IMG/VR virus record: IMGVR_UViG_2541047692_000013
Direction: 5' to 3' (one strand)
Source: a virus
Taxonomy: Duplodnaviria > Heunggongvirae > Uroviricota > Caudoviricetes
Length of the DNA stretch: 42,307 nucleotides
Shown here: positions 7,904 to 37,147 of the stretch, one piece after another
How the letters are laid out: the number at the start of each line of letters is the position of its first letter
Numbering within the stretch: the stretch's first letter is position 1
Notes under the pieces: model-generated
Seen by the model: only the letters and a program-made list of their open reading frames with translations
Told to the model about the DNA's origin: nothing
Database searches by the model: none
Program-made: the position numbers and the translations under genes

Positions 7904-7919
7904 GGCCGCAAGAGCGGCC
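7904..7919. terminator. bidirectional terminator hairpin between convergent genes
   Basis: Stem ggccgc/gcggcc with loop aaga; T-rich on the minus-strand side, A-rich on the plus side. Confidence 0.5.
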
Positions 7920-8647
7920 TATCGTTTCGCTTTGTGCTCGTCCCAGCACGTTTTGCACCATGCCATTAAGCCATCCGCATTTTGATTATTAGGGTAAAAG
8001 CTGGTTCGTTTTCTGCGGACATTACAAATTGGGCACCACTTCATATGACGTGTATTCTTTGGGCCATCTAGACACCTTGCACACCACTTAGTCAATCCAT
8101 CTGGATTTTTTGACGATTTCCTGAATTTTTCATATGGAAGGTTTATTCTGCATCGCAAACACTGCTTGCGGGCACTTGAAACTTCGTTAGCTGATTCTTC
8201 TTTTGACGGCGATACAGAAGGTATTCTTGCTGGCTCTGATACTGCCTGAGGTGCTTTTTTAGGTGACTGAGACGATACGTCATCACCAGGGAATCTTCCA
8301 TGATATGCCGGACACGTTGACACTCCAGGTGGAAGCTCTGCTGTAAATGGCTTTGGCTGAATCAGTTGCCTCTCTTTTGCTAACTCCTGCTGTTTATAAT
8401 ATGTCTGGATTACCGCGCTATCATAAGCAGGAGGTACGGAAATATTAGGCGCATTATCTCCCGTTTTTTGAAACTGAGTGGAGGTGTGTTCTATCACCTG
8501 TGTACGATTAATCGTTATCTCCCCATCTTCAGTCTTTATCGTTTTGTTACGATTAACGACCGTACGATCAGAGATCTTAGTCTTGTTCTGGTGAAGGACA
8601 TAAATAATCACCGCAACCACACCAACAACTATCCAGAAAACTTCCAT
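7919..8647 (-). CDS. membrane-anchored protein with two C-terminal CxxC...CxxC zinc-ribbon-like repeats; function unknown
   Basis: N-terminal TM helix (VFWIVVGVVAVIIYVL); repeats CLRCRINLPYEKF...WCARC and CPICNVRRKRTSF...WCKTC; perfect operator 20 bp upstream of start. Confidence 0.5.
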   Translation of the reverse strand: MEVFWIVVGVVAVIIYVLHQNKTKISDRTVVNRNKTIKTEDGEITINRTQVIEHTSTQFQKTGDNAPNISVPPAYDSAVIQTYYKQQELAKERQLIQPKPFTAELPPGVSTCPAYHGRFPGDDVSSQSPKKAPQAVSEPARIPSVSPSKEESANEVSSARKQCLRCRINLPYEKFRKSSKNPDGLTKWCARCLDGPKNTRHMKWCPICNVRRKRTSFYPNNQNADGLMAWCKTCWDEHKAKR

Positions 8648-8666: not shown

Positions 8667-8683
8667 ATTACCTTAAAGGTAAT
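8667..8683. promoter_or_regulatory. operator palindrome aTTACCttaaaGGTAAt (perfect)
   Basis: Perfect TTACC-N5-GGTAA; immediately upstream of the 7919..8647 start codon on the minus strand. Confidence 0.55.
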
Positions 8684-8731
8684 ATCTTGCTTTCAGGTGA
8701 TCAAGCGTTAAACGCCACCAACCAAATACGG

Positions 8732-8776
8732 TTGATTTTTATATTTCTCCGCGTTTATCATTACCTTTGCGGTAAA
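8732..8776 (+). promoter_or_regulatory. sigma70-like promoter (TTGATT, 18 bp, TATCAT) with perfect operator TTACCtttgcGGTAA overlapping -10/+1
   Basis: -35 at 8732-8737, -10 at 8756-8761, operator core 8761-8775. Confidence 0.5.
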
Positions 8777-8888
8777 TTTACATCGCACTCCTCTTGTGCC
8801 ATAGTAATCGGGCACTGGCAAAATCCAGTGCCGGGATTGGCGTCCCGGGTTACTAAGTGGCGCATACCACGCCAGACGTGGTTTTTTT
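8768..8888 (+). ncRNA. candidate small non-coding RNA, possibly antisense regulator of the downstream antirepressor mRNA
   Basis: Promoter at 8732-8761 and intrinsic terminator (ccacg-ccaga-cgtgg plus 7 T, 8867-8888); only an ATG-less ORF spans it; internal hairpins; two segments (8837-8843, 8853-8860) are collinearly complementary to the ant leader (8954-8961, 8968-8974). Confidence 0.3.
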
Positions 8889-9044
8889 ATGCGTTAAGCA
8901 CAGCTATATCCGAATTATGGTGGGCTGGGCAGGGGTCCGAAAGGACGCCGGTACCACTTAGGCCGGTACGCCAACCTTGTCCAGTTCACCACCAGTAATT
9001 GGCGTTGCGGTGGTGATTAAAATCACTAAGTGGAGATAACCACC

Positions 9045-9755
9045 ATGGCTAATGCTCAAACTTCCATCTTCAAATTTGAATCTGTTAACCCTATCCGTTC
9101 CATCATTATCGATGGCCAACCATGGTTTGTAGCCCAAGACGTTTGTAGTGCGCTGCGTATCCAAAACGTCACCCAAGCACTTGAAAAACTGGATGATGAT
9201 GAAAGGTCTATGTTCAACATAGGGCATGAACATCGTGCAATTTTTGACAGCCGAGTAAAAGAGATCAACATCATCTCCGAGTCAGGCCTCTACACACTGA
9301 TCCTCAGATGCCGCGACGCAGTGACACCAGGCACTATCCCCTACCGCTTTCGTAAATGGGTTACAGGTGAGGTTCTTCCTCAGATCCGCCGCACCGGAAG
9401 TTACATTAAAAACTCGCTCCCGCAGGAAGAACGCATAAAGATGGTTGCCGACCAGGTAGCCAACGCCACGGCGTCAGCAGTAATGCAGGCGATGAAGATA
9501 GAGAACAAAACCTACAGTGCCCCACTGAAGCCCGGCTACCGCAGTCTGATTCACTCGCCGTCTGGTGTTCTCGGCCTGACGGAGAACTCACTGCTGATGA
9601 ATCTGCTGAACCAGTTGCAGGACGACGGGCATGATGTATCGGGCGCGGCAGCGGAGCTGACCACCATGTTCTGCTACATCGTCGGTGTGAGCAAGTGCCT
9701 GCGTGATATCCAGACCCACGCGGAGTATATCAACGACAAAGCAGGGTTCTTCTGA
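9045..9755 (+). CDS. antirepressor (Bro-N / Ant family)
   Basis: Start taken as ATG 9045 with SD ggag; N-terminal Bro-N-like motif (IDGQPWFVAQDVCSALRI...LYTLILRCR...FRKWVTGEVLPQIRRTGSY). Confidence 0.75.
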   Translation: MANAQTSIFKFESVNPIRSIIIDGQPWFVAQDVCSALRIQNVTQALEKLDDDERSMFNIGHEHRAIFDSRVKEINIISESGLYTLILRCRDAVTPGTIPYRFRKWVTGEVLPQIRRTGSYIKNSLPQEERIKMVADQVANATASAVMQAMKIENKTYSAPLKPGYRSLIHSPSGVLGLTENSLLMNLLNQLQDDGHDVSGAAAELTTMFCYIVGVSKCLRDIQTHAEYINDKAGFF

Positions 9756-27392: not shown

Positions 27393-27469
27393 GTGGCATT
27401 AGCTCAGTTGGACAGAGCAACCGCCTTCTAAGCGGTCGGTCGCAGGTTCGAATCCTGCATGCCACGCCA
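27393..27469 (+). tRNA. tRNA-Arg (anticodon UCU)
   Basis: 77-nt cloverleaf by hand: acceptor GTGGCAT/ATGCCAC, D-arm GCTC/GAGC, anticodon stem ACCGC/GCGGT with loop CTTCTAA, T-arm GCAGG-TTCGAAT-CCTGC, discriminator G, encoded CCA. Confidence 0.85.
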
Positions 27470-36177: not shown

Positions 36178-36408
36178 TCATGAGTAGAAGAAGTATGCCA
36201 GTTCTGCTTTTGAGCGCAGCCATTGTCTTGTTTTACAGGCTTTAAAAAGCCCATTCATCAATACTTTACCTGGCATTTTGCGCTTACCTGTTAAGTGAGT
36301 CTGGATATAGTGACTCGTCGTTCCGGCTTCCTGTGCGAAGGCTTCACGCTCATCCGGAGTAAGTGCAAGCCAGTGCTTTTTGAAATCGAAATGTCCGTTA
36401 TCGCTCAT
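36178..36408 (-). CDS. Cro-like HTH regulator
   Basis: 76 aa; HTH (REAFAQEAGTTSHYIQTHLTG); divergent from the CI-like gene across the operator cluster; first gene of the leftward early operon. Confidence 0.6.
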   Translation of the reverse strand: MSDNGHFDFKKHWLALTPDEREAFAQEAGTTSHYIQTHLTGKRKMPGKVLMNGLFKACKTRQWLRSKAELAYFFYS

Positions 36409-36562: not shown

Positions 36563-37147
36563 ATGAAAAGTATCCAGGACGTCCGCAGGCAAAATCTCAA
36601 CGACTTGATCGACCGTGAATTCAATGGTGTTCAGACGCGGATGGCAGAAAAACTTGGAACTCAGGCAAATCTGGTAAACCGCTGGGCTCTTGGCAAGAAG
36701 GTTATCGGCGACCAGGTTGCGCGAAAAATTGAAGCTGCCGCCAATAAACCACGTAACTGGCTTGATATCGATCGCTCGCTTTCTCAGGAAGGTTTTCAGC
36801 CTGTCGGCCCAAGCGACATTGGTCAGCTGGCGGCTCACAACCTGGAACGCTGGATGAGCGAAAGCCGCGACCTTTCAACTCAGGGAAAACTTCACCGCGC
36901 ATCCGGCGTCGCCCAGGTGACAATCAGCCGCCTGTTAAACAATGAGGTCAGTGTTTCCATTTCCACCCTGGAGAATGTTGCATCAGCATTCGGGCGTCAC
37001 GGCTATGAATTACTGATTCACCCGCACGACCCTGCGACCATCAACTATGACCGCTCGCGCTACGCATTGTTACCCGAAACCGAGAAAGCAAAGATCGAAA
37101 GTTACATTGAATTTGTCATCAACCAGAACGAAAAAAACAAACAATAA
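36563..37147 (+). CDS. CI-like repressor with two tandem HTH (XRE-type) domains and no peptidase/autocleavage domain
   Basis: 194 aa; HTH-like segments at about residues 20-45 (VQTRMAEKLGTQANLVNRW) and 110-140 (ASGVAQVTISRLLNNEVSVSISTLENVASAF); no Ala-Gly/Ser-Lys LexA-type cleavage module seen. Confidence 0.55.
   Translation: MKSIQDVRRQNLNDLIDREFNGVQTRMAEKLGTQANLVNRWALGKKVIGDQVARKIEAAANKPRNWLDIDRSLSQEGFQPVGPSDIGQLAAHNLERWMSESRDLSTQGKLHRASGVAQVTISRLLNNEVSVSISTLENVASAFGRHGYELLIHPHDPATINYDRSRYALLPETEKAKIESYIEFVINQNEKNKQ

Follow-up and report, generated by a model that had tools for sequence, protein, structure and literature searches.

The stretch from position 8812 to 9755 is probably an immI-type secondary immunity module of a temperate phiV10-like phage, in which a C4-family antisense RNA would repress the antirepressor gene ant and an upstream IsrK-family small RNA would relieve that repression. 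The source phage is a phiV10-like Uetakevirus, a podovirus, and the module is of an already known kind, consisting of an IsrK/a1b1 RNA, a C4 antisense RNA and an antirepressor gene (cf. phage P1). It departs from that type in having no upstream reading frame (icd or orf45). The whole 42,307-nt stretch of DNA that was analyzed is called the window below. The elements, their family membership, their accessible complementarity, the co-variation of three sites and a layout identical to that of P1 were established in the analysis. By analogy with the relatives discussed below, the upstream small RNA is most likely a decoy that relieves repression, not a repressor. The features of the region, in order of position, are:

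8667-8682, both strands: operator-like palindrome ATTACCTTAAAGGTAA, exact match to ATTACC-N5-GGTAA
8732-8761, plus strand: distal promoter-like site TTGATT-18-TATCAT, matching 9 of 12 consensus positions; positional counterpart of P1 P2c4/P51a
8760-8775, unstranded: operator-like palindrome ATTACCTTTGCGGTAA, 16 bp, ATTACC-N5-GGTAA, overlapping the distal -10 element and start
8777-8805, plus strand: proximal promoter-like site TTTACA-17-CATAGT with TG upstream, predicted start at ~8812; positional counterpart of P1 P1c4/P51b
8812-8888, plus strand: IsrK-family small RNA (Rfam RF01394, 67.7 bits, cut-off 50; model positions 1-77, full length), three hairpins
8837-8843, plus strand: a1 site UUGGCGU, in the loop of IsrK hairpin 2
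8853-8860, plus strand: b1 site CUAAGUGG, in the single-stranded linker 5' of the terminator
8866-8888, plus strand: intrinsic terminator, hairpin 8866-8882 with a 6-bp stem (-7.6 kcal/mol), then U7
8913-8996, plus strand: C4-family antisense RNA (Rfam RF01695, 66 bits, cut-off 45; full length, model positions 1-87)
8954-8961, plus strand: b' site CCACUUAG, in the loop of the second inner hairpin of C4
8968-8974, plus strand: a' site ACGCCAA, in the single-stranded junction of C4
8999-9005, plus strand: a2 site UUGGCGU, 3 nt past the end of the C4 model
9010-9044, plus strand: translation-start hairpin GGUGGU/ACCACC (fold -10.7 kcal/mol), with b2 and the Shine-Dalgarno sequence in its upper part
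9026-9033, plus strand: b2 site CUAAGUGG, overlapping the ant Shine-Dalgarno sequence GGAG (9032-9035)
9045-9755, plus strand: ant, Bro-N antirepressor-like protein of 236 amino acids (Pfam PF02498, 71.5 bits)

The segment 8812-8888 is the equivalent of the c4-a1b1 element with a terminator added. The Rfam model of that element (RF03163) matched 8799-8851 over its full length with 44.1 bits (E = 5.6e-10), a near miss of the cut-off of 46.7, which was passed by two relatives (L009 and L010) and by P1. The IsrK match is preceded by a predicted promoter of its own (8777-8805), ends in a Rho-independent terminator and is followed by C4 and the Bro-N gene, as is typical of IsrK. A coupled upstream frame of the orf45 type was not found; the frame opening at AUG 8917 lacks a Shine-Dalgarno sequence and ends after 14 codons at UAG 8959-8961, 83 nt before the ant AUG, and a reading-frame check of the window yielded no other frame ending at the ant start. 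An earlier sequence-only reading had placed a small RNA gene of about 120 nt here, and its promoter-to-terminator unit with two segments that pair downstream was borne out. The terminator it had called strong is present as a hairpin with a T7 run, but at the predicted energy it is only moderate, and it must be leaky.

The segment 8913-8996, treated as the ant leader in that reading, is a homologue of P1 c4 and of Salmonella STnc1160. A 17-bp stem closes the RNA around two inner hairpins, and CCA comes right after this stem; the fold of lowest energy (-43.6 kcal/mol) agrees with the structure of the family. Its exposed a' and b' sites are complementary to a2 and b2 downstream, one of these targets overlapping the ribosome-binding site, and a second target pair, a1/b1, lies upstream. 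P1 c4/ant had been named as the model for the region and is the right reference system, but the c4 homologue is the supposed leader, and the upstream RNA is the a1/b1 element. The Rfam scan of the region gave no match beyond C4, isrK and c4-a1b1; a CRISPR-DR57 match on the operator (17.5 bits, E = 0.45) was weak and was set aside as noise. A protein-coding reading of the open reading frames 8687-8998, 8857-8961 and 8708-8821 (the last on the minus strand) was set aside, as the two full-length RNA family matches and the RNA-type co-variation account for these frames. In the database records examined (phiV10, TL-2011b and others) the RNAs are unannotated; their positions are occupied by a terminator or by a feature named "similar to hypothetical protein".

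Relatives of ant are annotated as anti-repressors, and overexpression of ORF4 of the uetakevirus ZX5 shifted the phage toward lysis (PMC9782041). In phiV10 both sides of the start-hairpin stem are changed, to AGUGGU/ACCACU (by eye). The predicted fold of 8812-9060 has IsrK, C4 and the start-site hairpin as three separate domains. A tail fibre gene adjoins the module in this uetakevirus.

Regarding transcription, the distal promoter proposed previously is present, and the hexamers of the uetakevirus relatives L001-L004 are similar to it. The start predicted for the proximal promoter coincides with the first nucleotide of the IsrK model. A good sigma-70 match occupies the corresponding position in L005-L009, the inspected relatives outside the uetakeviruses, where it ends 6-7 nt short of model position 1. 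This agreement points to a conserved small RNA of ~77 nt, not ~120 nt. No promoter-like site was found from the terminator (8888) to ant, and none on the minus strand of 8889-9100. The palindrome 8760-8775, likewise recognized earlier, abuts the -35 element of the proximal promoter, with its centre at about -44.5; the palindrome 8667-8682 is situated between the start codon (8647) of a leftward gene and the promoters of the small RNA. The motif ATTACC-N5-GGTAA occurs at ~14 sites in the window against 0.44 expected (~30-fold excess), and at 36.4-36.5 kb three copies or near-copies fall in the intergenic region of a cro-like gene and a divergent gene for an HTH repressor (36563-37147). This excess and this clustering make it credible that 8760-8775 is an operator.

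The sites follow one another as a1/b1, b'/a' and a2/b2, the order required for antiparallel pairing. The copies of UUGGCGU and their complement were located correctly in the sequence-only reading, as were b1 and b', and the leader's own UUGGCGU copy does permit competition; the third CUAAGUGG, on the ant Shine-Dalgarno sequence, had been missed. Two separate forward/reverse-complement/forward 7-mer triples within 8812-9047 occurred in none of 3000 dinucleotide shuffles, and one such triple in 29 of 3000. In an accessibility-aware scan the two top-ranked pairings were b1:b' (8852-8861 with 8953-8962; -7.2 kcal/mol, z -2.9, 0/60 shuffles) and b':b2 (8953-8962 with 9025-9034; -6.7 kcal/mol, z -3.7, 0/60 shuffles), whereas the same-sense control, the small RNA against the sites in the Shine-Dalgarno region, gave a z of -0.5. 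The two strands of the a':a2 helix are hard to reach in the predicted folds (opening costs 5.1 and 7.4 kcal/mol), a point against the mechanism proposed below.

Whole-molecule duplex energies (IsrK with C4, C4 with the ant start region, and 8768-8888 with 8889-9060) were no better than those of dinucleotide shuffles (z -0.4 to -1.3), a comparison that does not discriminate, as long G+C-rich RNAs always yield large fictitious duplexes. RNAcofold predicted no intermolecular pairs (ddG 0 to -1.1), since loop-loop contacts of folded RNAs cannot be represented in it. A duplex of 8768-8888 with 8889-9060 no better than shuffles had been named beforehand as evidence against the suggested antisense RNA. 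Taken literally, this is what duplex and cofold energies gave; their use as a refutation was rejected because the accessibility-aware scan, which finds b1:b' and b':b2, and the co-variation both pick out the sites.

Co-variation was assessed in 122 parsed related phage modules with 32 distinct b' loop classes. Across these classes b1, b' and b2 change in concert (0/10,000 permutations for each pairing). The energy of b' with its own b1 was -13.3 kcal/mol, compared with -6.8 kcal/mol for the b1 of other classes; regarding b2, the values were -15.2 and -10.2 kcal/mol. The median helix lengths were 8 bp (b1:b') and 9 bp (b':b2), and the end of b2 lies 6-11 nt upstream of the start codon in the majority of the 32 classes. 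The b specificity is CUAAGUGG in the window and CUAAAAGG in phiV10. Phage Tyrion has a altered at all three sites (UUGGUCU, AGACCAA and UUGGUCU). Of ten diverse phages, nine have tandem isrK and C4 matches, both above cut-off, upstream of an ant-like gene; the remaining one, L005, has a match above cut-off to C4 alone, the a1 hairpin sequence being nevertheless present.

The mechanism proposed is the following. Transcription would start near 8812, from the conserved proximal promoter, and the distal promoter, covered by a repressor operator, may add transcripts. Most transcripts would end at the leaky terminator as a 77-nt IsrK-type RNA, with a hairpin loop exposing a1 and a single-stranded linker exposing b1; those that read through would yield the C4 RNA and ant. 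C4, in which a hairpin loop exposes b' and a junction exposes a', would pair with b2 and a2 either in cis or once excised as a stable RNA, and, since b2 overlaps the ant Shine-Dalgarno sequence, ribosomes would be excluded and no antirepressor made. The short IsrK RNA, whose a and b sequences are those of the ant start region, would compete for C4, leave the ribosome-binding site free and switch ant on, and the antirepressor would then inactivate the phage repressor. The b sequence would act as the specificity code of the phage. A competition of a1/b1 with a2/b2 for C4 was proposed earlier (Weinberg 2010 supplement, citing Citron and Schuster 1990).

That C4 is processed and represses ant, and that IsrK activates it, would be expected here from experiments on P1 and Gifsy-1. 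RNase P processing of C4 has been reported for P1/P7. Traits that go with C4 RNAs are such excision out of a longer transcript, repression of ant in trans and a role in heteroimmunity; those that go with IsrK include Hfq binding and trans-activation of the read-through mRNA. In Gifsy-1, IsrK in trans raised an anrP translational fusion 114- to 171-fold, the compensatory mutations G28A/C162U and G31A/C159U map onto a1:a', and the downstream processed RNA STnc1160 depends on the isrK promoter (PMC4825925). Two results from the same phage speak against the decoy model: disruption of a1:a' in cis raised translation, which a pure decoy would not predict, and constitutive STnc1160 failed to counteract IsrK (PMC4825925). 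A further difficulty is how C4 could ever win if IsrK is always in excess from the shared promoter.

The strongest competitor of the decoy model, although rather unlikely, is a cis switch of the Gifsy-1 type, in which the C4-like segment is part of the read-through mRNA and not an independent repressor; a1/b1:a'/b' pairing in cis would silence the leader, and IsrK in trans would displace the cis copy, refold the leader and expose the ribosome-binding site. The Gifsy-1 authors hold that IsrK opens an inhibitory fold around the upstream frame orf45, with no titration of free C4 RNA, and back this model with mutagenesis, native gels and 30S footprinting (PMC4825925). The same a1:a' pairing is present in the window, and the conserved GGUGGUGA (9010-9017) pairs with either the ACCACC before the AUG or the C4 3' strand (-16.8 kcal/mol), so alternative folds exist. 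The Gifsy-1 mechanism, however, needs orf45 translation coupled to anrP, and the corresponding frame in the window is the short one without a Shine-Dalgarno sequence described above. A cis switch also leaves the co-variation of the Shine-Dalgarno-located b2 with b' in 32 classes unexplained, and the separate domains of the predicted fold do not favour it. (Mapped onto the Gifsy-1-like phage SW-37, L005, the orf45 frame is open to the end of the extracted stretch, with numbering and frame transferring poorly.)

It is very improbable that the upstream small RNA is itself a negative antisense regulator binding the ant leader in the manner of P1 c4 or P22 sar, as first suggested: it does have complementarity to two segments of the leader, in the order needed, and binding could in principle stabilize an inhibitory fold, but these targets are a' and b' of a C4-family RNA instead of the ribosome-binding site, the small RNA is identical to the sites at the Shine-Dalgarno sequence and not complementary to them (the control above), which makes direct masking impossible, and in Gifsy-1, the only tested relative, the homologous IsrK in trans activates antirepressor translation >100-fold, so that the expected sign is the opposite one (PMC4825925).

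Equally little credence is given to termination control of the P4 CI type, in which C4 would pair with b1 or with nascent a2/b2 and act mainly on transcription by altering read-through into ant. The possibility was raised by the IsrK authors, who noted the structural similarity of IsrK to P4 SeqA, and trans IsrK raised a Gifsy-1 transcriptional fusion 8-fold, far below the translational effect of >100-fold (PMC4825925). In the window b1 lies 5 nt upstream of the terminator stem, and UGGCG (8859-8863) with CGCCA (8870-8874) is a candidate anti-terminator (by eye); against this, no terminator-like site was found from C4 to ant, and the position of b2 on the Shine-Dalgarno sequence in most classes points to translational control.

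An extension of the decoy model, considered rather unlikely, treats the b sequence as a code for cross-talk between phages, with IsrK as the key and C4 as the lock. In this reading the main repressor, from its operator centred near -44.5 of the proximal promoter, could stimulate, instead of blocking, the synthesis of IsrK and C4 in lysogens. The b sequence may be such a barcode, with at least 32 versions among the 122 modules. If true, a diffusible IsrK would unlock the ant of any co-resident or incoming phage with the same barcode, the resident C4 would lock it, and the uetakevirus lock would sit directly on the ant ribosome-binding site, with no upstream reading frame in between.

Little in this is new in kind: podoviruses like phiV10 and epsilon15 share the RNA-based secondary immunity circuit of P1 and Gifsy-1. 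Two literatures are joined by it, as IsrK is the a1/b1 element of the C4 system and STnc1160 is a C4 RNA. In practical terms, mutual immunity or mutual induction of phages should be predictable from the b sequence. Judging by the three-way co-variation, C4 may generally mask the antirepressor start directly, also in Gifsy-1-like phages, for which the published model does without such masking.

Among the known systems, P22 sar is likewise a small RNA acting on the translation of an antirepressor gene. It is made from the other strand, with complementarity to its target throughout, whereas all partners in the window lie on the plus strand and pair through short loops, and the leader yielded no minus-strand promoter; the likeness to sar drawn previously did not hold. 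P4 CI RNA with seqA and seqC is, like C4 here, a processed RNA flanked on both sides by copies of its own target, and IsrK was regarded by its authors as a structural homologue of P4 SeqA; CI acts by premature transcription termination (PMC4825925), whereas the downstream target in the window is on a ribosome-binding site. The c4-a1b1 motif (Weinberg et al. 2010; RF03163) agrees with the window element in its two hairpins, its conserved CAAAAU loop, a1 in the second loop, b1 immediately 3' and its position upstream of a C4 RNA, whereas its model excludes the terminator hairpin that makes the window element a discrete small RNA.

The isrK-orf45(STnc1160)-anrP locus of Gifsy-1 (Hershko-Shalev et al. 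2016, PMC4825925) shares with the window an IsrK of the same Rfam family with the same three hairpins, a leaky terminator and, beyond it, a C4-like RNA and an antirepressor gene reached by read-through, and the a1:a' pairing of the window corresponds to the verified G28/G31-C162/C159 helix. The window differs in its closed orf45 frame, which makes orf45 translational coupling impossible, in its b specificity, in having no isrJ downstream and in belonging to a uetakevirus, not a lambdoid prophage.

The correspondence with immI of P1/P7 is close (facts on P1 draw on the RefSeq annotation and on secondary papers). The operator sequence, the repressor and the Bro-N Ant of the window are unrelated to those of P1, and the window phage is a podovirus. 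In P1 no canonical terminator was found after b1, and the match to isrK reaches only 35.1 bits. The target of P1 C4 is the icd ribosome-binding site, translation of ant being coupled to icd, whereas b2 of the window lies directly on the ant Shine-Dalgarno sequence, with no icd; b2 ends 10 nt before icd in P1 and 11 nt before ant in the window. Both have an operator-covered distal promoter (Oc4, a C1 operator, in P1) followed by a proximal one, a C4 of the same Rfam family (68.8 bits in P1), 7-nt a sites and 8-nt b sites, and their spacing is almost the same, with 32 nt from the -10 element to a1 and a2 3-4 nt after C4 (4 in P1). The order of the elements, Oc4, P2c4, P1c4, a1, b1, C4, a2 and b2, is the same in both.

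The window was compared with Rfam under curated thresholds, which yielded two adjoining full-length matches on the forward strand: RF01394 (isrK) at 8812-8888, with 67.7 bits (cut-off 50), and RF01695 (C4 antisense RNA) at 8913-8996, with 66 bits (cut-off 45). Under relaxed thresholds, RF03163 (c4-a1b1, "a1, b1 targets of C4 antisense RNA") was found at 8799-8851 with 44.1 bits, just below its cut-off of 46.7. The isrK and C4 matches indicate that the small RNA proposed upstream of ant by a sequence-only reading is an IsrK-type RNA, its hairpins 1 and 2 forming the putative a1/b1 element, and that the true homologue of the phage P1 c4 RNA sits within what had been taken for the ant leader. The gene ant (9045-9755) encodes a Bro-N domain protein, the copies of which in relatives are annotated as antirepressor; the entire window shares 96-97% identity with the uetakeviruses phiV10 and HEMP4. 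In predicted folds IsrK and C4 each take their own family structure, with the following sites.

8837-8843, forward strand: a1, UUGGCGU, in the loop of IsrK hairpin 2 (predicted fold)
8853-8860, forward strand: b1, CUAAGUGG, in the single-stranded IsrK linker (predicted fold)
8954-8961, forward strand: b', complement of CUAAGUGG, in the loop of the second inner hairpin of C4 (predicted fold)
8968-8974, forward strand: a', complement of UUGGCGU, in the C4 junction (predicted fold)
8999-9005, forward strand: a2, UUGGCGU, second copy of the a1 sequence
9026-9033, forward strand: b2, third copy of CUAAGUGG, overlapping GGAG (9032-9035), nine bases before the ant AUG (9045)

Two independent forward/reverse-complement/forward 7-mer triples, as present in 8812-9047, occurred in 0/3000 dinucleotide shuffles. 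The complementarity of a1 and b1 to a' and b' and the leader's own UUGGCGU copy had been seen correctly beforehand, the extra b copy having been left unlisted.

Ten diverse phages were compared, with E. coli, Klebsiella, Enterobacter, Salmonella, Hafnia and Yersinia as hosts and with Stx phages included. C4 lies upstream of an ant-like gene in 10/10 and isrK scores above cut-off in tandem with C4 in 9/10; the remaining one (the Gifsy-1-like Salmonella phage SW-37) retains the a1 hairpin sequence. Together with 120 further loci from a pattern search of viral contigs, 122 modules were parsed, with 32 distinct b' loop sequences, and every b' class has a matching b sequence in the IsrK linker and just 5' of the start codon. 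The mean duplex energy of the b' loop was -13.3 kcal/mol with its own b1 versus -6.8 kcal/mol with the b1 of other classes, and -15.2 kcal/mol with its own b2 versus -10.2 kcal/mol with that of other classes (0/10,000 permutations as good in either case). Contiguous helices had medians of 8 bp (b1:b') and 9 bp (b':b2), and in most classes 6-11 nt separate the b2 end from the start codon. Such co-variation of three sites argues strongly that selection acts on both the b1:b' and the b':b2 pairing, and shows b to be the likely specificity determinant. The a sequence (UUGGCGU) is almost invariant among the 122 modules, the exception being phage Tyrion with changes at all three sites (UUGGUCU, AGACCAA, UUGGUCU); a variants are under-sampled because the search pattern itself required UUGGCGU. 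One locus (IMGVR_UViG_2630968531_000002) has IsrK, C4 and a2, but the 60 nt that follow contain neither a recognisable b2 nor a start codon; it may be a decayed or rearranged copy. GGUGGUGA (9010-9017 in the window, after a2) is kept in nearly all modules and has the sequence of the closing-stem 5' strand in C4; its alternative pairing partners are ACCACC (9039-9044, just 5' of the ant AUG; -10.7 kcal/mol) and the C4 3' strand UCACCACC (8986-8993; -16.8 kcal/mol; a2 then in the loop), possibly a structural switch.

The duplex-energy check proposed with the sequence-only reading gave no support in whole-molecule form, with duplex energies no better than shuffles (z -0.4 to -1.3) and zero intermolecular pairs on cofolding, both methods being unsuited to loop-loop contacts of stably folded RNAs. 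Support came from an accessibility scan (10-nt windows, site-opening cost added, 60 shuffles): b1:b' ranked top for IsrK against C4 (-7.2 kcal/mol, z -2.9, 0/60 shuffles) and b':b2 for C4 against the ant start region (-6.7 kcal/mol, z -3.7, 0/60 shuffles), and IsrK against the ant start region, of the same sense, gave background level (z -0.5). The a helices were less accessible than b, as would be expected if they form after a first b contact.

Transcription signals and related palindromes are as follows.

8732-8761, forward strand: distal promoter-like TTGATT-18-TATCAT, 9/12 consensus positions
8760-8775: operator-like palindrome ATTACCTTTGCGGTAA, overlapping the distal -10 hexamer
8777-8805, forward strand: proximal promoter-like TTTACA-17-CATAGT with upstream TG, predicted start 8812, about 7 nt downstream
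8866-8882, forward strand: terminator hairpin, then seven T
3190, 7548, 8667, 8760, 9827, 27055, 30202, 30220, 34143, 34205, 36107, 36492, 37204, 37267: sites of the 16-bp palindrome ATTACC-N5-GGTAA

The distal promoter and its operator had already been proposed and were recovered; the terminator was too, as moderate rather than strong, since its stem is worth only -7.6 kcal/mol. The predicted proximal start coincides with IsrK model position 1, and L005-L009, the relatives inspected from outside the uetakeviruses, show a good sigma-70 match where the proximal promoter lies, which points to a 77-nt RNA as the conserved product; the distal promoter, common with its operator only to the uetakevirus group among the relatives inspected, may add a longer form. 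The promoter scan found no promoter-like site between terminator and ant, so ant expression would depend on read-through. With one mismatch allowed, ATTACC-N5-GGTAA occurs at about 14 sites in the window versus 0.44 expected. A divergent HTH gene (36563-37147, Pfam HTH_3) is separated from a leftward cro-like ORF of 76 codons (36178-36408) by an interval with three copies or near-copies, apparently the usual signature of phage repressor operators; dispersed, and clustered round these two genes, the palindromes look like a genome-wide operator network, recalling the dispersed C1 operators of P1. Relative to the conserved proximal promoter, the centre of the operator at 8760-8775 falls near -44.5, directly next to the -35; a repressor bound there could either repress or activate IsrK and C4 transcription. 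A 242-aa ORF (7919-8647, reverse strand) diverges from the IsrK promoters; it has a hydrophobic N-terminus, a Cys-rich C-terminal part and a weak Stc1 match below cut-off, with an operator 20 nt 5' of its start.

Following the experimental precedents in P1 and Gifsy-1, C4 is read as the putative repressor of ant translation and IsrK as its counteractor; ant would be made from transcripts reading past the IsrK terminator, and, as b2 sits on the ant Shine-Dalgarno sequence, control of the ribosome-binding site should be direct. In Gifsy-1, the mRNA made when isrK-promoter transcripts pass the terminator, as some do, is translationally silent, an anrP translational fusion rose 114- to 171-fold with short IsrK in trans, compensatory pairs were G28A/C162U and G31A/C159U, and a processed RNA, STnc1160, is found downstream of isrK (Hershko-Shalev et al. 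2016, PMC4825925). By position, G28 and G31 are the a1 Gs 8839 and 8842, and C162 and C159 the a' Cs 8972 and 8969. Refolding of the Gifsy-1 type instead of simple titration stays a serious rival, because breaking a1:a' in cis raised translation there, which titration does not fully explain, and constitutive STnc1160 failed to oppose IsrK (PMC4825925). That the upstream RNA is itself a c4-like ant repressor, as first proposed, is unlikely: no pairing with the ribosome-binding site is possible, its homologue IsrK is an activator, and the c4 homologue is the RNA at 8913-8996. A further idea of the IsrK authors, that C4 acts on termination at the IsrK terminator much as in P4 (PMC4825925), is very improbable. 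In SW-37, a b2 match (UCAACC), about 40 nt after a2, ends at the antirepressor AUG, which makes it conceivable that C4/STnc1160 could mask the anrP start directly, an interaction absent from the published Gifsy-1 model (PMC4825925).

The phiV10-like IsrK/C4 instance is unannotated in the database records examined, the phiV10 record showing nothing there beyond a terminator and a feature labelled "similar to hypothetical protein"; such features lie over the IsrK/C4 RNAs in phiV10 (L001 2599-2666) and TL-2011b (L002 1770-2858) and are probably carried-over spurious ORF annotations. Small RNAs go unmentioned in a study on the function of the antirepressor of uetakevirus ZX5 (PMC9782041). Elsewhere in the window, a tRNA gene (27393-27466, forward strand; Rfam tRNA, 72.2 bits) has the anticodon loop CUUCUAA, and therefore probably the anticodon UCU (Arg).

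The P1 RefSeq record gives the order Oc4, P2c4, P1c4, a1 (7 nt), b1 (8 nt), C4 RNA, a2 (7 nt), b2 (8 nt), icd-ant1/2, and the window likewise has two promoters in tandem, the distal one covered by an operator (in P1, Oc4 over P2c4/P51a, then P1c4/P51b). Spacings in the window and P1 are 32 and 32 nt (-10 hexamer end to a1), 3 and 4 nt (C4 end to a2) and 11 and 10 nt (b2 end to start codon); the Rfam scores of P1 are 68.8 bits (C4), 51 bits (c4-a1b1) and 35.1 bits (isrK, below cut-off). The terminator scan, which does not call loops above 8 nt, found no canonical terminator after b1 in P1 and for this reason missed a terminator-like hairpin (ACCGCA...UGCGGU, then AUUUUUG) at 48284-48315 (385-416 of the P1 extract L131); P1 too may produce a short a1b1 RNA. 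P1 C4 RNA is excised from the c4-icd-ant transcript, is an RNase P substrate and pairs with a2/b2 around the ribosome-binding site, blocking translation, and a1/b1 compete with a2/b2 for C4 in a proposal of Citron and Schuster recorded in the Weinberg 2010 supplement. Publications or catalogues already cover the RNA families, the a1b1-C4-a2b2 layout and IsrK's role as an activator. The regulated frame is icd in P1 and orf45 in Gifsy-1, the antirepressor being translationally coupled to it, whereas the window has no such frame: that from AUG 8917 to UAG 8959-8961 is without a Shine-Dalgarno sequence and ends inside the b' loop after 14 codons, 83 nt before ant. With b2 directly on the ant Shine-Dalgarno sequence, the minor variation here would be that the ant ribosome-binding site is controlled directly, with no upstream frame in between.
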